64,000 bases of DNA from Candidatus Tanganyikabacteria bacterium (lineage in GTDB: Bacteria; Cyanobacteriota; Sericytochromatia; S15B-MN24; VGJW01). This document shows positions 19,159 to 26,523 of the stretch, one piece after another. The notes under the pieces were generated by a model. That model ran no database searches and had not been told where the DNA came from. It worked only from the letters and a program-made list of their open reading frames with translations. Location of the stretch: positions 35,525 to 99,524 of the forward strand of contig VGJW01000010.1 of assembly GCA_016867265.1 (NCBI GenBank), written 5' to 3'. The translations under genes and the position numbers were made by a program. How positions within the stretch are numbered: position 1 is the stretch's first letter; each line of letters opens with the position of its first letter.

Positions 19159-20280
19159 TTGCCACGCGACTGCTATGAAGTCCTCGGAGTGTCCCGCACG
19201 GCCTCCGAGGACGACATCAAGAAGGCCTACCGCAAGCTGGCCCGCCAGTTCCATCCGGACGTCAACAAGGACCCGGACGCCGGCGAGAAGTTTAAGGAGG
19301 CCACTGAGTCCTACGCCATCCTCTCGGATGCCGAGAAGCGTTCCCGTTACGACCAGTTCGGGCACGCCGGGGTCGAGGGGGCGGCTCGGGGCTTTGATCC
19401 CCATGCCGCGGGCTTCGGTGATCTCTCGGATATCTTCGAGGCGTTCTTCGGCGGCGGGATGCGTCGAGGCGGGCGCCGCGGACCGGAGCGGGGTGCCGAT
19501 GTCCAACTGGGCGTCCGCATCACCTTCGCTGAGGCCTACGCCGGGACCGAGCGGACGCTCGAGGTTGCGGCTATGGCGCGCTGCGATACTTGCCGCGGTT
19601 CCGGTGCCAAGGAAGGCTCGTCGCCCGTGACGTGCGCGACCTGCCACGGCGTCGGGCAGGTTCAGCAGACCCAGCGCACGCCCTTCGGGCATTTCGCGAC
19701 GGTCGTCGGCTGTCCCGCCTGCGAGGGCGAGGGCCGGACCATTGCGGCCAAGTGCGGCTCCTGCAAGGGACAGGGCCGGGTGCGCAAGACCCGCGAGATG
19801 AGCATGCGCATTCCGCCCGGCTCGGACCAGGGCCTTCGCATCCGTTCGACGGGCGACGGGGACGTGGGGCCGCGTGGTGGGCCGCCTGGTGACCTGTTCG
19901 TGCACGTCCAGGTCGAGGGCGACTCTCGCTTTGTTCGTGAAGGTACCGAGCTGTTCCACGAATTGCCGGTGTCCTTTCCCCAGCTGGCGCTCGGCGACGA
20001 GGTGGAGGTGCCCACGATGGAGGGCAGCCACAAGATGGTCATTCCCGAGGGGACGCAGACGGGTACCGAGTTCGTCCTGCGTGGCCAAGGCTTTCCGGCC
20101 TTGCGCGAGGGACGCCGCAAGGGCGATCTGCACGTGATCCTGCGCCTCGTGGTGCCGCGCAAGCTTTCGGAGGCCGAGCGCGAGGCTTTGCGGCAGTTCG
20201 ACGCGGCTCATCGTCAGGAGGCGACCAAGGAGGGCCACGGATTCATGGACTTCCTGCGCGGGGTGCTGGGCGGACGCTGA
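19159..20280 (+). CDS. dnaJ: molecular chaperone DnaJ
   Basis: J-domain [33 protein letters not shown], Gly/Phe region, four CxxCxGxG zinc repeats. Confidence 0.9.
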
Positions 20281-20290
20281 GGCGAAGGCT

Positions 20291-22081
20291 TCAGGTCTGG
20301 CCGGCCGGGTTTGCGGCCAGGCGGCAGCGAGTGATTTCGGCTTCGAGGTCTGCCAGGATCTGTCGCGCGCGTGTGACTTCGGCAGCGCGATCGGAGGCGG
20401 GTTCGACGTGGCGACGCCCGAAGGGGAAGAAGCGCCAACCTGACGGCCGGAGTTCGGGCGTTGCGGCCTCGAGGGTCGCCAGCTCCTGTCGCAGTTCCTC
20501 GGCACGCCGTGCCAGCTGATCCGCACGCGTGGCCATCAGGGTTCGTCTCGCGTCGTCCTCGGCCCGCTGTTCCTGTCGGTGTTGCCACGCCCTCAGGCGC
20601 GCACCGGCCTCGGCGCCAAGCGTCACGCGCCGGTCCTCAGGCAGGAGTTCCCAGAGCCTTCCCAGGCCCTCGCGCAGGGTCTCGCCTTCTGCGTCGTCCG
20701 ACATCACCCGGGCCATGCCTTGCCAGAGGGGCGATGCTTCCGTATCGATGCCGATAGGGCCTTCCGGCAGCCGTTCCAGCAGGGCGGCCCAGTCGGGGCC
20801 GAGCGGCCCCCGGGCTCGCTCGAGCCGGGCCACGGCCCTGGATGCCCGCCCCAGCCGATCGAGGCGCTCCGCGCGTCGCGGGGACTCCTGGCGCAGGGCG
20901 TCCCTCAAGATGCCCGCCACGACCGGCGCCAGCACCAGGTGTCCGTCATCGTCGTGATCGAGTGCTTCGGCGTGTGTCGTCAGCCAGAGGAAGGCCGATT
21001 GCGCCTCGCCGGGATCGGCCAGGACGATCTCGAGGGCATCCTGGCTGATGGGGCCTAGGAAGGCGGCGGCTTCCATCCAGCGGATGCCTTCCTCGGACTT
21101 CCACCAGCGGATGCGGCGGGCGGCGTGCTGCAGCGCAAGCCCGCGCCCCCTGCCGTCCGTGTCGCACCAGAGCGCCAGCAGGAACGGCAGGCCGCCGGTG
21201 GCTTCGAGGGCTTCCCCGGCCCGATTGGGTGCGAGGCCGCGTGCTTCGAGGTAGGCGGCCACGTCCTCGGGGCCGAACCGCGCAAGGTCCACTTCGCGAA
21301 TCTGGTGCATCAGGACGTCCCACCGGCGCAGGGGGTCCGTATCGCGCAGGCGTTGCCGGCCGCACACGAGCATGCGGAGGTCGATGCCCGAGCCCGGGGC
21401 GTCGAGCGTGGGCAGGCCCCAGGCGAGCAGCCAATGGCCCAGCGTGGGATGGAGTGCCTCGTGTGTGTCGAGGACCATCAGGACCCGGGCGGGGGGCTGG
21501 GCGACCGGCGCCTGCAGCAGTCGCTCCCAGCCCTGCTGGGGGCGCAGGCCTTCCTTGAGGTCCTCGCGCAATGCGTGTGCCAAGGCGCGCATCGGCTGCA
21601 GCATGAGGTCCTGTTCTTCGCGGTCCCTTGTCCACGCGTGCACCGCCGCTTCATAGCCCTGCCGCACCCGGGCATCCGGGGTCTGTCCGGTTTCTGCCGT
21701 GGCGTCCAGGGCTTCGTCGAGGCCGGCCAGAAGCCCCTCGGGGGCTCCGCCGTCGACAAGGCGGCCGCGCAACCTGCGCAGCATATGGAGGGCCTGGCGC
21801 AGCCGTGCGAAGCGCAGGGGGGGCAGGTCACGCGGGGCCACGGAGCGGTCCACGAGGCCTTCGAGCGCGTCCAGCAGGCCGACGCGCCCGCCCGTTTCGT
21901 CCAGGGCGAGGCGGGCCGTTTCGGGTGCGGCCTGGTCAAGGCGCTCGAGGACGACTTCCTTGAGCGTCGTCTTGCCGATGCCGCCGGGGCCGTGCAGGTT
22001 CACGAAACGTTTGCCCGGTGGGCCGGAAAGGTCACGGGCGACGGTGGCGAGCACCTGTTCGCGGCCGATGAAAAGGCGCAT
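20291..22081 (-). CDS. NB-ARC/STAND-like P-loop NTPase with C-terminal helical/coiled-coil region, no effector or HTH domain
   Basis: N-terminus MRLFIGREQVLATVARDL...KRFVNLHGPGGIGKTTL (Walker A), RVLMVLDTHE (Walker B); C-terminus Ala/Arg/Glu-rich coiled coil; convergent on dnaJ with 10-bp gap. Confidence 0.6.
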   Translation of the reverse strand: MRLFIGREQVLATVARDLSGPPGKRFVNLHGPGGIGKTTLKEVVLERLDQAAPETARLALDETGGRVGLLDALEGLVDRSVAPRDLPPLRFARLRQALHMLRRLRGRLVDGGAPEGLLAGLDEALDATAETGQTPDARVRQGYEAAVHAWTRDREEQDLMLQPMRALAHALREDLKEGLRPQQGWERLLQAPVAQPPARVLMVLDTHEALHPTLGHWLLAWGLPTLDAPGSGIDLRMLVCGRQRLRDTDPLRRWDVLMHQIREVDLARFGPEDVAAYLEARGLAPNRAGEALEATGGLPFLLALWCDTDGRGRGLALQHAARRIRWWKSEEGIRWMEAAAFLGPISQDALEIVLADPGEAQSAFLWLTTHAEALDHDDDGHLVLAPVVAGILRDALRQESPRRAERLDRLGRASRAVARLERARGPLGPDWAALLERLPEGPIGIDTEASPLWQGMARVMSDDAEGETLREGLGRLWELLPEDRRVTLGAEAGARLRAWQHRQEQRAEDDARRTLMATRADQLARRAEELRQELATLEAATPELRPSGWRFFPFGRRHVEPASDRAAEVTRARQILADLEAEITRCRLAANPAGQT

Positions 22082-22126
22082 GCTGTCGAGGTTAAGGTCG
22101 GTCGTGCATCGGGGTCAAGGTGGTTC

Positions 22127-22735
22127 GTGAAGCGTTTGCGCGTGCCGGCACGTCGCCTTGGCCTGACGGCGATCCTGCTGGCAGGCTGTGCCGGTGCCCC
22201 TGACCGCTATGTGGCCACGCTCGAGGTGGCCATGCTCGGGGCCGAGCCGGGGCGAAGGGTTGCCTTGGCCATCCGGGACGGCGTCTGGCGGGTCGATTTC
22301 CGGGATGCCCAAGGCAGCTTTGCCCTCGGTTGGCGAGGCCGCCCGCGCTGGGTGCTCTTTGCCGGTGGCTTGTCTCGCCAGATGGACCTCGAGCCGGTCG
22401 TGCGCCGCCACGGCTTGCCCGACCCCGGGGATCTGGCGACGGTACCCTTCTCGTCCAGCGCCTGGATGAAGGCCGCCCGGCCCATCGACGTGCCCGGTCG
22501 CATCTCGGGCGTGGCGTGTCGCCTTTGGCAATGCGAGGCCTCAGGGTCCGTGGAGCGGTTCTGGCTGGCCGAGGAGGACGGTGTGCCCCGGCGATTCGAG
22601 CGCGCGGCGCCGGACGGCACCCTGCTGGCGCAGCTTGACTGGCGCGACGTGGCGGTCGGGGGCGATTTGCCCGACGCCAGCTTCTCCGTTCCCGCAGGGA
22701 CCCTGGGCCTGCCTGCGCTGCCTTCCGGCATCTAG
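22127..22735 (+). CDS. lipoprotein (LolA/LolB-like fold suspected)
   Basis: GTG start; lipobox LTAILLAGC; 202 aa; the long 536-aa track ORF is only real in this C-terminal portion (its upstream part is antisense to the NTPase gene). Confidence 0.5.
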   Translation: MKRLRVPARRLGLTAILLAGCAGAPDRYVATLEVAMLGAEPGRRVALAIRDGVWRVDFRDAQGSFALGWRGRPRWVLFAGGLSRQMDLEPVVRRHGLPDPGDLATVPFSSSAWMKAARPIDVPGRISGVACRLWQCEASGSVERFWLAEEDGVPRRFERAAPDGTLLAQLDWRDVAVGGDLPDASFSVPAGTLGLPALPSGI

Positions 22736-22814
22736 CCGGCGGGATGTCCCGGTTGGGAGTTCCTGTTGGCTGTTGCGCGATTATCTAGGTCGCGACAAAA
22801 ATTATTACTGAAGC

Positions 22815-22848
22815 TTGACATTGCGGGCGGAGGGAGGTTGTCTATGGT
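22815..22848 (+). promoter_or_regulatory. candidate promoter for rhodopsin gene (-35 TTGACA at 22815-22820, -10 not cleanly resolved)
   Basis: AT-rich island (22780-22860) in a 70% GC genome, 40-70 nt upstream of the TTG start. Confidence 0.3.
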
Positions 22849-22886
22849 TTGTATACCTCTGACGGCTTCAGATTGGAGAAGCGCCC

Positions 22887-23672
22887 TTGAACGCCTTGCC
22901 CACATTGACAGCGGACCAGTTTTCGCTGGTCTACAACATTCTCAGCTTTACCATCGCGACCATGGGGGCCTCGTTCCTCTTCTTCGTGCTGGGCCGGCAG
23001 CAGGTCGGTATCCGCTACCGCCCGGCCCTGCTGGTCTCGGCGCTCGTCGTGGCGATCGCCTGCTACCACTACTTCCGCATCTTCGACAGCTTCGAAGCGG
23101 CCTATTCGCTTGTCGACGGCGCCTACAAGCCCAGCGGCAAGCCTTTCAATGACGCCTACCGGTATGTCGACTGGCTGTTGACGGTGCCCCTGCTGCTCGT
23201 TGAACTGGTCGCCGTCCTGCAGCTGTCGCGGACCGAGAGCGGCCCGATGCTTCGCAACTTGGCGATTGCGGCCGTCCTGATGATCGGCCTCGGCTACCCC
23301 GGTGAGATCGAGCACAACAACATGATGGTTCGTGGTGTCTGGGGCGCCCTCAGCAGCATCCCGTTTGCCTACATCCTGTATGTCTTGTGGGTCCGGCTCG
23401 GCGAAGCCGTCAAGGATCAGACCGATCGTGTCCGCAACCTGCTCGGCACCACGCGTCTTGTGCTCCTGGCCACCTGGGGCGTCTATCCCATCACCTACTT
23501 GCTGCCCCAGCTGGGCGTCGACACTCAGGCGGCGACGGTCGGCATCCAAGTGGGCTACGCGTTGGCAGACGTCGCAGCGAAGGCGGGCTACGGCCTCCTT
23601 ATCTACGCGATTGCCCGGGCCAAGTCCGAGGCGGACGGCAGCGCGCCCGACTTCCAGCCCGCGGCTGCCTGA
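22887..23672 (+). CDS. type-1 microbial rhodopsin, DTE-motif proton-pump type (proteorhodopsin/xanthorhodopsin/Gloeobacter-rhodopsin-like)
   Basis: TTG start 7 nt after GGAGA; helix C RYVDWLLTVPLLLVE (Asp, Thr +4, Glu +11 = DTE; Leu at the PR-105 tuning position); helix G ALADVAAKAGYGLLIY with Schiff-base Lys; seven predicted TM segments; 261 aa. Confidence 0.85.
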   Translation: MNALPTLTADQFSLVYNILSFTIATMGASFLFFVLGRQQVGIRYRPALLVSALVVAIACYHYFRIFDSFEAAYSLVDGAYKPSGKPFNDAYRYVDWLLTVPLLLVELVAVLQLSRTESGPMLRNLAIAAVLMIGLGYPGEIEHNNMMVRGVWGALSSIPFAYILYVLWVRLGEAVKDQTDRVRNLLGTTRLVLLATWGVYPITYLLPQLGVDTQAATVGIQVGYALADVAAKAGYGLLIYAIARAKSEADGSAPDFQPAAA

Positions 23673-23679
23673 TTGTTCG

Positions 23680-23712
23680 GGGCCCGGTCCGCGCTCAGCG
23701 CGGGCCGGGCCC
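23680..23712 (+). terminator. GC-rich hairpin (14-bp stem, CTCAG loop) after rhodopsin gene, no U-tract
   Basis: GGGCCCGGTCCGCG CTCAG CGCGGGCCGGGCCC, one G-U pair; 8 nt after stop codon. Confidence 0.45.
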
Positions 23713-23739
23713 TTCCCCATGAGAGAAAGGAGTCCCGCC

Positions 23740-23973
23740 TTGGAATTTGGACAGCGCGATTGGCTGAGGGTACCCATGGGTCTGGCTGCCGGCGGCGTGG
23801 CTGGTGCGGCCTTTGGTGCGGTTTTCGGCTGGCTGGCCTCTTGGTTCGCCATGGGGCCGGGGGCTTGGCAGGGGGTATGTGAATCAGCGCCGTGGTTCGC
23901 CGCGGTAGGTGCCCTTGGCGGTTTCCTGATTGGTCTCGAAAGGCCGGAAAAGGCAGGCCAGACCCGCGGTTGA
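23740..23973 (+). CDS. small two-TM glycine-zipper membrane protein (77 aa)
   Basis: TTG 7 nt after AAGGAG; GLAAGGVAGAAFGAVFGWLASWF ... WFAAVGALGGFLIGL; an ATG at 23719 in frame is an alternative start. Confidence 0.4.
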   Translation: MEFGQRDWLRVPMGLAAGGVAGAAFGAVFGWLASWFAMGPGAWQGVCESAPWFAAVGALGGFLIGLERPEKAGQTRG

Positions 23974-24045
23974 CCGGCCGGTCGGCCCGGCGGACGTGCG
24001 CTTGGTCATCGACCGGGCCTGTCGTCCGGAGGACAATCTGGTCCT

Positions 24046-24741
24046 ATGCACGATTTGCCCTTGCTCAAGTCGACGTTCCGGAGCTGTGGCCAACGCCTGC
24101 AGCGGACGGAGAGGATTGGCGGGGGCGGTGGCTGGGAAGACCTCTACACCGTCGTGGACTACGCGGCCTTTGCCCTGTCCCGGGAGCTTCCCGAATTGCC
24201 GTGCAGCGCCGGATGCGCAGGCTGTTGCCGCAGCAAGGCCCTGTTTCAGGTGACGCAACGGGAGTGGGAGCTGGTCCGCGAGGCCGTCGATGCGTGGCCT
24301 GAGGCACGCCGGGCCGATCTGGCGTGCCGGGTCGTGGCCGCGCATGGGCCCGATCGCGAAGCGCTCGAAGCCTTGGCGGCGGCCTGGGGGGAAGCGGGTC
24401 TGGGGGCGCGCATTCCGGTACCGGATACCCTGAGGGATGGCTGTCCCCTGCTGGGCGACGATGACATGTGCATGGTCTACGAAGCGCGGCCTCTCGTCTG
24501 CCGGGCTTATGGCGCCTTTTCCGTCACCCTCGACGATCGGCCCAGAGTGATGATCTGCCGGGAGTTCGGCCCGGACTTCCTCCAGGTCCTGCATGACACG
24601 GACATGCCCGAGCTGCCGTTGCCCGTCTACGAGCGTTACGTGAGCCGGCTGGGGGCCTTGCAGCCACCGGGGCCGCTTCGTCCCATGGCCCTGTGGTTGC
24701 TCGAGTGGGCAACGGCCATGCAGGGTGTGCAACCGGCCTGA
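24046..24741 (+). CDS. YkgJ/UPF0153-family Cys-cluster (CxxCxxCC) protein
   Basis: CSAGCAGCC motif plus downstream CPLLGDDDMCMVYEARPLVCRAYG; chosen over the antisense 282-aa ORF on this basis. Confidence 0.55.
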   Translation: MHDLPLLKSTFRSCGQRLQRTERIGGGGGWEDLYTVVDYAAFALSRELPELPCSAGCAGCCRSKALFQVTQREWELVREAVDAWPEARRADLACRVVAAHGPDREALEALAAAWGEAGLGARIPVPDTLRDGCPLLGDDDMCMVYEARPLVCRAYGAFSVTLDDRPRVMICREFGPDFLQVLHDTDMPELPLPVYERYVSRLGALQPPGPLRPMALWLLEWATAMQGVQPA

Positions 24742-24761
24742 GCCTGCGGGGGGGCGAGCGC

Positions 24762-24790
24762 TTGACGAACATCCGTTCGATGTCTATGCT
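24762..24790 (+). promoter_or_regulatory. sigma-70-type promoter TTGACG-17 nt-TATGCT
   Basis: Seen directly; 32 nt upstream of ATG at 24823. Confidence 0.45.
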
Positions 24791-24822
24791 TGTGGAACAA
24801 GCGTTCTAAAGCGGGGGCGACC

Positions 24823-25158
24823 ATGAACGGGCAGGTGCTCTGGGACCGGCGGGGAGACGAAGTGCGCATGAGCCGTGAGGCCTTTCGCTTCCTTCAAGAG
24901 GTCATTCGTCGGACCTCCGCGAGGGTCGCCGCGTGCTTGCGCCGATGCCGGATGATTCTCGGGGTTGGCGGCTTGCTGCTCGAATGTGCACCCGAGGACT
25001 TCTTTCTGCTCAACCTGATGCAGGATGGGCTCGATGCCGCCGTGCAAGCGGTGTTCGGGGGCCATTGCCGTCTCGAACTTGCCCCAGTGGCGCTCGTGCC
25101 GGCTCGCCGGGAGCCTTGCGCCGGTCGCTTGGCCCGCGCGGCGCGGCGCGCCAGCTGA
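24823..25158 (+). CDS. hypothetical protein (111 aa)
   Basis: ATG start downstream of the promoter above; track ORF begins at a TTG inside the -10; no recognisable domain. Confidence 0.4.
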   Translation: MNGQVLWDRRGDEVRMSREAFRFLQEVIRRTSARVAACLRRCRMILGVGGLLLECAPEDFFLLNLMQDGLDAAVQAVFGGHCRLELAPVALVPARREPCAGRLARAARRAS

Positions 25159-25160
25159 GG

Positions 25161-25757
25161 TCAGGGGGCTTCCGGCGCTTCGGGCGGGAGCTCTTCGGTT
25201 GCAGGCGCGGTTTCGTCCGGTGTCGGCCAATGCAGTATGGTCTGGCCCTGGATCTGCGCGAGCTTGTCCTTGTCTATCCTGAAGTAGTCCCCGAAGCGAG
25301 GCCCCAGTTCCAACAGGGAGCTATTTCCCTGTGGCGTTTTCCGGACGAGTCCGCGTTCGACCAGGTCCCGGACGTGGTCATAGGCGCCAGATCCTCGCAC
25401 CTCGACCACATCACGCTGTAGGACCGGCTGACGCATCGCGATGAAGGTCAGGGTCTTCAGTACCGCTTGGGCGAGGTCGCTCGGCAACAGGCGATCCACG
25501 ACTGGCTGGTAAGCACCCTTGACCTGCATGATCCAGCCCTCTTCGGACCGGGCGACTTCAAGACCGCTGTCGGCGTTGGTCTCGTGTCGCTGCACCAGCG
25601 CGACCAAGCCTTCGAGGCAAGCCTTGCGCGAGATGTCGAGCAGCTCGCACAGGGCTTCGAGCGGCAGGGGCTGGGCCGTCGTGAAGAGCGCGGCCTCGAG
25701 CATTGCCTGCAGCGGCCCCTGGCCGTGGGCCGGCTTAGGCGGCGGCCTCTTGGCCAT
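25161..25757 (-). CDS. scpB: SMC-Scp complex subunit ScpB
   Basis: LEAALFTTAQPLPLEALCELLDIS...LKTLTFIAMRQPVLQRDVVEVRG winged-helix ScpB pattern; downstream of scpA. Confidence 0.85.
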   Translation of the reverse strand: MAKRPPPKPAHGQGPLQAMLEAALFTTAQPLPLEALCELLDISRKACLEGLVALVQRHETNADSGLEVARSEEGWIMQVKGAYQPVVDRLLPSDLAQAVLKTLTFIAMRQPVLQRDVVEVRGSGAYDHVRDLVERGLVRKTPQGNSSLLELGPRFGDYFRIDKDKLAQIQGQTILHWPTPDETAPATEELPPEAPEAP

Positions 25758-26523
25758 GGCTTTCCGGGCGCTCTTCTTGGGCGAGGATGGTCAGGTCGGC
25801 ATAGGGTTCCCGCTGTCCGACCTCGACCACGCCCCAGTGGGCCAGGAACATCAGGGCGAGGAAGAGAGACGGTGTTTCCTTGTGGTCCGTGGCGAGGCCG
25901 CGGAACGAGATCTCCGGCTGCAACGTGAATTGGTCGGCGAGTCGCTCGGCCAGGCGCTTGGCGTCGCCATCGAGGTCCTCGTCGTGGACGAGACCTACGG
26001 TCCGGGCCTTGATGTCAGCCCTCCGCATCCGTCTGAGCGTGCCGGGCTTCGCCGGCTCGGGAAGCTCCTCGGCCTCGAGGCGCCGGAGCTCCGCGATGAG
26101 CTCTCCCAGCGTCACCTTGCGCCTGCGTGGCTGGCGGAAGCCCGCGCGACGCAGCAGCGTCATGTCGATGATGATGGGGCCGTCTCCCTCGCCCTGCTCG
26201 AAAGCTTCCGTTCCGTCGAACCAGTCGTCGTCATCGGAGGGTGGTGCGAGCCAGTTTTCCAGATCGTTGCGGATGGCTTGTGCCTTCAGGCGAAGCATGA
26301 CCGTGGCGCAGTGCAGCGCCTTGCCGCACGAGCGCAGGTCCTGGCGGTCGGTGGCATCCAGCTTGGCAAGGACCTGGTCGGTCGCCGTGATGATGTCGAC
26401 ATCCCACGGGTCCAGCTCGCCCCTCTGGGCCATGCCAAGCAGGATCTCGATGCCCGGGTTGTCGTCGACACCGCGGGGCATCTCGGGCAGGTCGCCCGCT
26501 TCCGGCATGAGATCCTCGGTCAT
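25735..26523 (-). CDS. scpA: segregation and condensation protein A
   Basis: ILLGMAQRGELDPWDVDIITATDQVL is the ScpA N-terminal signature; overlaps smc stop. Confidence 0.85.
   Translation of the reverse strand: MTEDLMPEAGDLPEMPRGVDDNPGIEILLGMAQRGELDPWDVDIITATDQVLAKLDATDRQDLRSCGKALHCATVMLRLKAQAIRNDLENWLAPPSDDDDWFDGTEAFEQGEGDGPIIIDMTLLRRAGFRQPRRRKVTLGELIAELRRLEAEELPEPAKPGTLRRMRRADIKARTVGLVHDEDLDGDAKRLAERLADQFTLQPEISFRGLATDHKETPSLFLALMFLAHWGVVEVGQREPYADLTILAQEERPESHGQEAAA

Follow-up and report, generated by a model that had tools for sequence, protein, structure and literature searches.

Among phototrophy modules, the proton-pumping rhodopsins of microbes are regarded as the simplest, consisting of an opsin with its retinal and sometimes a carotenoid antenna, and biophysical, structural and optogenetic studies almost always express them alone. 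Genes related to those of xanthorhodopsin, Gloeobacter rhodopsin and Kin4B8 are found clustered with blh, crtY, crtW, crtB, crtI and crtE, and a 2025 study of cyanobacterial xanthorhodopsins reported Hlips as frequent neighbours, with only hli and nblA as neighbouring genes (PMC12779958). The literature searched, including the xanthorhodopsin neighbourhood and genome papers (PMC12779958, PMC3646047), contained no description of a small rhodopsin partner with two transmembrane helices (2-TM). Here we describe a 64-kb stretch of DNA from Candidatus Tanganyikabacteria (contig VGJW01000010.1, positions 35,525-99,524; hereafter the window), in which a rhodopsin gene is followed on the same strand by a gene for a predicted 2-TM protein, termed fam1, and then by ykgJ and by p111, the gene of a 111-aa protein. 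A sequence-only reading had suggested, as a speculation, that the hairpin, 2-TM, YkgJ and 111-aa elements after the rhodopsin gene form an accessory or regulatory module of the photoreceptor. All four were indeed present on the plus strand where that reading had placed them; however, the mini-cluster proved to be the junction of two unrelated units, a mobile cassette of rhodopsin and fam1 and a set of resident chromosomal genes.

The rhodopsin gene (22887-23672, plus strand, 261 aa, TTG start) matched the Pfam model PF01036 Bac_rhodopsin with 133 bits against a cutoff of 24.6. Among proteins of solved structure, it is most closely related to Salinibacter xanthorhodopsin 3DDL, Kin4B8, psXR and Gloeobacter rhodopsin (structures among the best relatives: 3DDL, 7YTB, 9WFA, and 6NWD), and the match to 3DDL extends over residues 3-252 with an E-value of 2.4e-90. 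The protein carries the DTE motif D95, T99, and E106 (RYVD95WLLT99VPLLLVE106), and these residues, together with H61, D228, and the Schiff-base K232, are invariant across an alignment of 24 rhodopsins and align to xanthorhodopsin. Moreover, G153 aligns to xanthorhodopsin G156, where a small residue (Gly) marks the pocket for the carotenoid keto-ring (PMC3646047). By its sequence we assign the window protein to the xanthorhodopsin-type light-driven proton pumps, with which it shares the DTE motif, the Schiff-base Lys and the keto-ring Gly. In contrast to the described xanthorhodopsin clusters and structures, none of which includes a small 2-TM partner, the window cassette encodes a predicted 2-TM protein and contains no retinal or carotenoid gene. 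Sericytochromatia xanthorhodopsins have been reported as unrelated to the cyanobacterial ones (PMC12779958). A second member of this class, Candidatus Sericytochromatia LF-bin-423 (L041), was found to encode a rhodopsin of another clade with 57% identity, which groups with Verrucomicrobiota and is not accompanied by fam1, indicating that Sericytochromatia acquired xanthorhodopsins more than once.

The fam1 gene (23740-23973, plus strand, 77 aa) begins with a TTG codon at 23740, located 7 nt past an AAGGAG ribosome-binding site (23727-23732). Gene callers chose an ATG at 23776, giving a protein of 65 aa. Since a W-L-R motif upstream of this ATG is conserved as protein across phyla, and since the starts in the relatives L095 and L106 fall at the corresponding place, preceded by GGAAGGAG or GGAGGGAG ribosome-binding sites, the 77-aa call is preferred, as is the AAGGAG site that the sequence-only reading had given to it. 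The abundance of GxxxG motifs noted in that reading was likewise confirmed, with eight motifs counted and a Gly content of 21%. An AF2 model with a predicted local distance difference test score (pLDDT) of 82 shows a helical hairpin with helices at residues 5-33 and 42-66, and the Kyte-Doolittle maxima over 19 residues are 1.65 and 1.46, the second being marginal. Based on the model, fam1 is predicted to form a glycine-zipper hairpin of two membrane helices, probably with both of its basic ends in the cytoplasm, in which case the short conserved GP...G..E(S/T) loop would lie outside.

Members of fam1 share the signature G-x3-G-x2-FG-x2-FG-x2-A(S/H)-x-F-x2-GP-x4-G-x2-E(S/T)-x2-(W/F)F-x3-G, of which the window protein carries every invariant column, and the latter matched the hidden Markov model (HMM) of the family with an E-value of 1e-27. 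A profile search of 5.8 billion proteins returned 41 fam1 clusters, all of them annotated as hypothetical and lacking Pfam domains, and an exhaustive HMMER search over 1.84 billion representatives returned 61 clusters, all of 42-109 aa. No Pfam or NCBIfam family was matched above its cutoff. The window protein matched Gly-zipper_YMGG (PF13441) with 24.1 bits, below the cutoff of 28.9, with further weak matches to Romo1 and Tim17, and only 6 of 40 fam1 members matched the YMGG model at E <= 0.01. In sequence terms, fam1 is accordingly described here as a discrete, sharply bounded, rare and unannotated family set apart from the generic Gly-zipper pool. From SlyB/Gly-zipper_YMGG and the Tim17/Tim22/Romo1-Mgr2 proteins it differs by scoring below the gathering cutoff, by having neither a lipoprotein signal nor an outer-membrane context, and by its own GP...G..ES..WF signature and its exclusive rhodopsin/carotenoid context. 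Fusions of whole rhodopsin and fam1 proteins were sought among the 61 clusters and none was found, all members being at most 109 aa long. Two candidates were rejected: an apparent long open reading frame (ORF) in L055 lies in another reading frame, and P0165 in L101 is a deletion scar, described below, and not a joining of two whole proteins.

To examine the linkage of fam1 to rhodopsins, 80 loci, each surrounding one of the closest rhodopsins, were taken from GTDB species representatives and searched with all window proteins by tblastn and HMM. In nine of these loci fam1 lies directly downstream of the rhodopsin gene and in four it lies in an adjacent crt cluster, and no further match was found in the approximately 1.3 Mb of the 80 loci. 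The same-strand arrangement directly after rhodopsin occurs in Sericytochromatia, in four Chloroflexota, whose rhodopsins are the closest relatives (70-75% identity), in a deltaproteobacterial metagenome-assembled genome (MAG), in Chitinophagales, in another member of the Bacteroidota and in Ignavibacteria, whereas four Bdellovibrionota genomes have fam1 inside a carotenoid cluster, at a distance of 3.5-5.6 kb from the rhodopsin gene. Over all non-redundant loci, fam1 directly follows rhodopsin in 17 of 23. A scan of metagenome contigs with the fam1 alignment yielded two loci only, the back-translated Gly/Ala patterns being too degenerate, and look-ups of exact proteins were used instead. The unbiased reverse test started from fam1 and covered ten neighbourhoods (L093-L104 and L106). 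Every one of them contained either a rhodopsin no more than 6 kb away or a remnant of one fused to fam1, and in eight of them fam1 comes directly after rhodopsin with flanks that are otherwise unrelated.

The loci in which fam1 does not follow rhodopsin directly retain a pigment-gene context. In L099/L100, fam1 overlaps the stop codon of a CrtW-like gene 5.6 kb from the rhodopsin gene, in a cluster ordered crtE-crtI-crtB-cruF-acyltransferase-glycosyltransferase-crtY/blh; L061 and L075 show the same overlap, the CrtW-like genes being of the FA_desaturase family, and fam1 abuts crtB in L017 and L018. In a Rhodothermaceae MAG (GCA_013003465; L101:6001-6255), the first approximately 25 xanthorhodopsin codons (MVELPTLSAGQYSLVFNMLSFTIAA) are fused in frame to fam1, and the stop of this chimera overlaps (ATGA) the start of the lycopene cyclase gene crtY, which is followed by blh. 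This chimera is an in-frame deletion scar, in which fam1 outlived the deletion of the rhodopsin gene. Pairwise distances of rhodopsin and fam1 were strongly correlated (Mantel r = 0.84, reached by 0 of 5000 permutations). In a neighbour-joining tree of the rhodopsins, the pumps linked to fam1 group into clades that run across the boundaries of host phyla, and fam1 is missing from the rhodopsin clades of Cyanobacteriia, Deinococcota and Anaerolineae. At every fam1 locus examined, the gene is on the strand of a xanthorhodopsin-type gene at most 6 kb away, or inside the retinal/carotenoid cluster of that rhodopsin. Hence, in the loci examined, fam1 is exclusively associated, co-inherited and co-transferred with xanthorhodopsins and their pigment genes.

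A second small family, termed fam2, occupies the same slot in another group of rhodopsins. It consists of 2-TM proteins of approximately 65-75 aa with an N-terminal GHYxTxG motif, and its genes come right after rhodopsin in 14 of the 80 loci (L019, L020, L023, L029, L030, L036, L038, L042, L055, L068, L070, L078, L079, and L087), either 15-93 nt past the rhodopsin stop or overlapping it, often with blh as the next gene. The rhodopsins linked to fam2 form one Myxococcota/Bdellovibrionota clade. No Pfam or NCBIfam family was matched by fam2 above the cutoffs, and a merger of fam1 and fam2 into one family was rejected, as a profile-profile comparison by hhalign gave a probability of 0.2%.

Between the rhodopsin stop and fam1 lies a G+C-rich hairpin (23679-23712, plus strand) with a 16-bp stem and a 3-nt loop, which is unique within the window. 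The hairpin alone folds at -37.4 kcal/mol, and its 96-nt context folds at -51.9 kcal/mol (z = -3.1). As the sequence-only reading had remarked, a U-tract is lacking: the tail TCCCCATG has 2 T in 8 nt, and the element fails a terminator scan. A scan of positions 22000-26000 against Rfam at E <= 1 gave no match, indicating that the hairpin belongs to none of the known RNA families. In 15 loci the gap from rhodopsin to fam1 exceeds 60 nt, and 12 of these have a stem of 13-19 bp with a dG of -24 to -43 kcal/mol that starts 2-34 nt past the rhodopsin stop. The stem recurs and its sequence differs among lineages, thus what is conserved is structure and position. Most of these stems have T-rich tails, including 5-6 T at the homologous position in L095, L012, L097, and L102, compared to which the tail in the window is weak.

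The start of fam1 is located 68 nt past the rhodopsin stop, leaving 27 nt between stem and start codon. Since this leaves no room for a promoter, fam1 is most likely transcribed by read-through, and we infer that it is co-transcribed with rhodopsin, with attenuation or with stabilisation of the upstream segment. The hairpin could plausibly be a leaky terminator or a stabiliser of the mRNA 3' end, and the partial terminator suggested from sequence alone is plausible and conserved in position. Intercistronic stem-loops set stoichiometry in the puf operon, and the arrangement in the window resembles them. Translational coupling is implied in L016 and L103, where the start of fam1 and the stop of rhodopsin overlap instead.

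Comparison with related genomes separated the mini-cluster into its two units. The cassette is approximately 1.2 kb long (window positions ~22790-23985) and comprises a putative promoter, the rhodopsin gene, the hairpin and, as its last gene, fam1. Its putative promoter and 5' leader (22790-22886, plus strand) contain an AT-rich stretch, TTGACA at 22815-22820, a conserved GGAGGTTGTCTA...TTTGTAT and a GGAGAA ribosome-binding site; a sigma-70-like scan of 22500-25400 did not confirm the promoter hexamers. These upstream motifs are shared by the window, L095 and L106 although the genomic context of L106 differs, and the left edge of the cassette falls between 22736 and ~22790. G+C content is 0.59-0.64 over rhodopsin compared to 0.66-0.72 in the flanks. 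The contigs L091/L092 keep the backbone of dnaJ, ATPase (590 aa), lipoprotein gene, ykgJ, p111, scpB, scpA, and smc and have no rhodopsin at the locus: 61 nt separate the lipoprotein gene from ykgJ, vs. 1.3 kb with rhodopsin and fam1 in the window, and nucleotide homology between the window and L091 resumes right after the fam1 stop. Conversely, L106/L107 (Sericytochromatia GCA_035285595; L106:7151-8219) carry rhodopsin and fam1 with 94 and 81% identity, respectively, at another chromosomal site, flanked by genes for a Na/H exchanger and a glycosyltransferase and without ykgJ, p111 or scpB. The occurrence of the backbone without the cassette and of the cassette without the backbone genes shows that ykgJ and p111 are resident and that rhodopsin and fam1 form a separate, mobile cassette, which either entered the site between the lipoprotein gene and ykgJ, or was lost there in the relative, or was relocated. 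L107 and the rhodopsin-less L091/L092 stem from a single sequencing project, so that these may represent one genome with the cassette elsewhere. A Transposase_mut fragment approximately 0.8 kb upstream of one rhodopsin-fam1 pair (ENA ERZ22067504 contig, P0133) is a possible hint as to how the cassette moves.

On its left, the cassette is bordered by dnaJ (19159-20280, plus strand), an AAA/STAND-like gene of 596 aa (20291-22081, minus strand) and a lipoprotein gene of 202 aa (~22127-22735, plus strand), as read from the ORF listing. The 596-aa protein is of P-loop type (AAA_22/AAA_16, weakly NB-ARC/NACHT), the 202-aa lipoprotein matched no family above cutoff in Pfam or NCBIfam scans, and both genes belong to the backbone kept in the rhodopsin-less relative. 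On the right follow ykgJ (24046-24741, plus strand) and p111 (24823-25158, plus strand), the latter being convergent with scpB (25161-25757, minus strand; Pfam ScpB), next to which scpA and smc are also encoded on the minus strand. This layout recurs in the sister genomes L001-L011 and L095/L096, the nearest genome being a Candidatus Sericytochromatia MAG (L011) with 98% rhodopsin identity, and the exact YkgJ protein was found on 20 freshwater-metagenome contigs with a gene order identical to that of the window. In pairwise comparisons of the window, L011, L095 and L091, dN/dS was 0.03-0.07 for rhodopsin, 0.04-0.23 for fam1, 0.12-0.19 for ykgJ and 0.05-0.16 for p111. This purifying selection indicates that fam1, ykgJ and p111 are all real protein-coding genes, and the Ka/Ks check by which their neutrality might have emerged (0.04-0.23 for the three) showed them to be conserved.

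The YkgJ protein (231 aa) matched Pfam PF03692 with 27.2 bits against a cutoff of 23, which upholds its assignment to the YkgJ/UPF0153 CxxCxxCC proteins, and it had no NCBIfam match. Its Cys residues are arranged as C53-x3-C57-x2-C60-C61, followed by C133, C142, C152, and C171. While the CxxCxxCC and downstream Cys motifs and the score above the Pfam cutoff are shared with YkgJ/UPF0153, the window protein differs in belonging to a very narrow subfamily, with only four homologue clusters among 5.8 billion proteins. One homologue, P0123 (71% identity), is encoded on the rhodopsin-less contigs L091/L092, and P0124, the sole distant relative found, has no rhodopsin nearby. The p111 product is a small basic protein of 111 aa, as had been predicted, with an isoelectric point of 10.2; nothing above the cutoffs was found for it in Pfam and NCBIfam scans, and sequence searches of the PDB gave nothing meaningful for either protein. 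From its predicted structure, p111 may tentatively be described as a DnaA-domain-I or DciA-like KH fold with a disordered basic tail. Among the 80 GTDB rhodopsin loci, ykgJ, p111 and the lipoprotein, ATPase and scpB genes occur in this lineage only. Hence, ykgJ and p111 are resident backbone genes beside scpB and unlinked to rhodopsin.

Furthermore, p111 has its own putative promoter, TTGACG-17-TATGCT (24762-24790, plus strand). The near-consensus hexamers pointed out by the sequence-only reading were the only sigma-70-like match in 22500-25400, compared to 0.2 in shuffled sequences. Two palindromes, CGAACATCCGTTCG at 24766-24779 and GGAACAAGCGTTCT at 24794-24807, are the only GAAC-N4-GTTC sites in 64 kb; one overlaps the -35 hexamer and the spacer and the other lies just past the -10, so that promoter and palindromes together span 24762-24807. 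Across four genomes with dS above 1 (window, L011, L095, and L091), neither palindrome varies, nor do the -35 hexamer and the TAnnnT of the -10, and conservation upstream of p111 exceeds that of the adjacent coding DNA. Firmicutes and Actinobacteria have GAAC-N4-GTTC as their LexA box, and variants of it occur in Cyanobacteria and Chloroflexi (PMC4951493). The palindromes are therefore candidate operators of the LexA (Cheo-box) type, the consensus being taken from other phyla and possibly not that of the host, and p111 is probably DNA-damage-regulated. Its two perfect dyads resemble the promoters of LexA-regulated small genes; the difference is that p111 matches no known SOS gene family. The same organism is also represented by a population variant, L008, in which a 126-nt stretch is perfectly duplicated in tandem (L008:4629-4883, spacing 129 nt). 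The duplication covers the 3' end of ykgJ and the p111 promoter and doubles the LexA-like box; it may be real or an assembly artefact.

Taken together, we favour, with somewhat more than even confidence, a reading of the locus as two units, in which a mobile xanthorhodopsin cassette carrying fam1, likely an accessory of the rhodopsin photosystem, lies beside the resident ykgJ and p111. Here, the pump gene would be driven by its own promoter and followed right past its stop by the stem-loop, the read-through of which would yield much rhodopsin mRNA and less fam1 mRNA. The most likely role of fam1 would be that of a small accessory membrane partner, which may pack against the pump by its Gly-zipper face or may help in loading the chromophore or the carotenoid antenna. 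The neighbouring ykgJ and p111 would be residents beside scpB-scpA-smc, with p111 under its own promoter overlapped by LexA-type sites. The proposal of a single rhodopsin module made of hairpin, 2-TM protein, YkgJ and 111-aa protein, for instance in redox or metal sensing, draws on the tight packing of four elements on one strand and on the repetition of this layout in L001-L011 and L095/L096. We consider it most improbable, as ykgJ and p111 stay in place beside scpB in L091/L092 without rhodopsin, the near-identical cassette of L106 lacks both, neither is found at any of the 79 other GTDB rhodopsin loci, the distant YkgJ relative P0124 has no rhodopsin nearby, and p111 has its own promoter with operators of DNA-damage type. 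Comparison of the neighbourhoods of orthologous rhodopsins thus splits the proposed trio: the 2-TM protein, like the hairpin, follows rhodopsin in several phyla and remains a candidate accessory, whereas ykgJ and p111 are confined to this lineage, leaving redox or metal sensing for the rhodopsin without support.

Two further explanations concern fam1 itself. It could be a generic glycine-zipper stress or pore-forming protein (SlyB/YMGG, Romo1/Tim17-like or holin-like) that hitch-hikes on a mobile cassette, as the weak YMGG, Romo1 and Tim17 matches and the transposase fragment near one cassette might suggest. This seems improbable to us: the exhaustive search ended in 61 bounded clusters and not in the large Gly-zipper families, few members touch the YMGG model, non-adjacent fam1 genes are still inside a retinal/carotenoid cluster, purifying selection and co-divergence with rhodopsin extend across at least five phyla, and the unrelated 2-TM family fam2 sits in the same slot of another rhodopsin clade, which argues that the slot itself is functional. 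Alternatively, fam1 could serve chromophore supply, as a partner of a CrtW-type ketolase, a lycopene cyclase or Blh, or as a carrier of retinal or keto-carotenoid to the opsin, and would then stand beside rhodopsin through clustering of photosystem genes. Its positions at CrtW-like genes and crtB inside carotenoid clusters, its place at the head of the fam1-crtY-blh operon of L101, where it survived without rhodopsin, and the keto-ring pocket Gly of the window rhodopsin all accord with this, and we regard it as a serious though rather unlikely contender, given that fam1 directly follows rhodopsin in most non-redundant loci, that several fam1-rhodopsin loci have no crt or blh match in the stretch of flank covered (including L012 and the whole window), that the start/stop overlaps in L016 and L103 are with rhodopsin itself, and that fam1 distances track rhodopsin distances.

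Several observations nevertheless weigh against the two-unit reading with fam1 as an accessory of the photosystem. Neither fam1 nor fam2 is found at 53 of the 80 nearest rhodopsin loci, including all those of Cyanobacteriia, Deinococcota and Anaerolineae, and the solved xanthorhodopsins function alone, indicating that fam1 is not essential for pumping. The Bdellovibrionota fam1 genes sit with crtW or crtB and not with rhodopsin, which fits a carotenoid role equally well; tblastn found no match to crtE, crtB, crtI, crtW, crtY, cruF, blh or an amine oxidase gene anywhere in the 64-kb window; and L017 and L018 have a Gln in place of the otherwise invariant Glu of fam1. As regards transcription, the read-through is deduced from spacing, and a promoter within the 3' end of the rhodopsin gene is possible. 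For p111, the LexA reading is built on motif identity and conservation, and the fold model is of low confidence (pLDDT 58).

Of the described rhodopsin partners, HtrII of the SRII-HtrII pair is similar to fam1 in being a two-helix membrane protein encoded beside a rhodopsin, co-oriented and co-inherited with it. However, fam1 is only 42-109 aa long, with no HAMP or methyl-accepting domain and no larger fusions in 61 clusters, the window rhodopsin is a putative DTE pump and not a sensor, and no sequence similarity was detected. Hlips resemble fam1 as small membrane proteins that recur beside xanthorhodopsin genes and may handle pigments. They have one helix and a chlorophyll-binding ExxNxR motif, whereas fam1 has two predicted helices and no ExxNxR and is absent from the Cyanobacteriia xanthorhodopsin clade.

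In conclusion, the analysis points to fam1 as an undescribed rhodopsin-linked small protein, and fam1 and the parallel fam2 are candidate small subunits of a photosystem assumed to be a single protein. The locus also holds a negative lesson, in that, for two of the three genes, tight co-directional packing beside a photoreceptor was not a sign of function. As a marker, fam1 can be used to trace transfers of rhodopsin cassettes, here into the non-photosynthetic Sericytochromatia. More speculatively, and as a possibility that we would place below even chances, some xanthorhodopsin pumps may have a dedicated two-helix subunit (fam1, or fam2 in myxobacterial-type clades) that is co-transferred with the pump, binds it and tunes its assembly, stability or carotenoid/retinal loading. 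If this is true, the module as currently understood would lack a component, namely fam1, which accompanies the pump in inheritance and transfer through at least five phyla and could influence its folding, oligomerisation or activity, or its loading with antenna or retinal.

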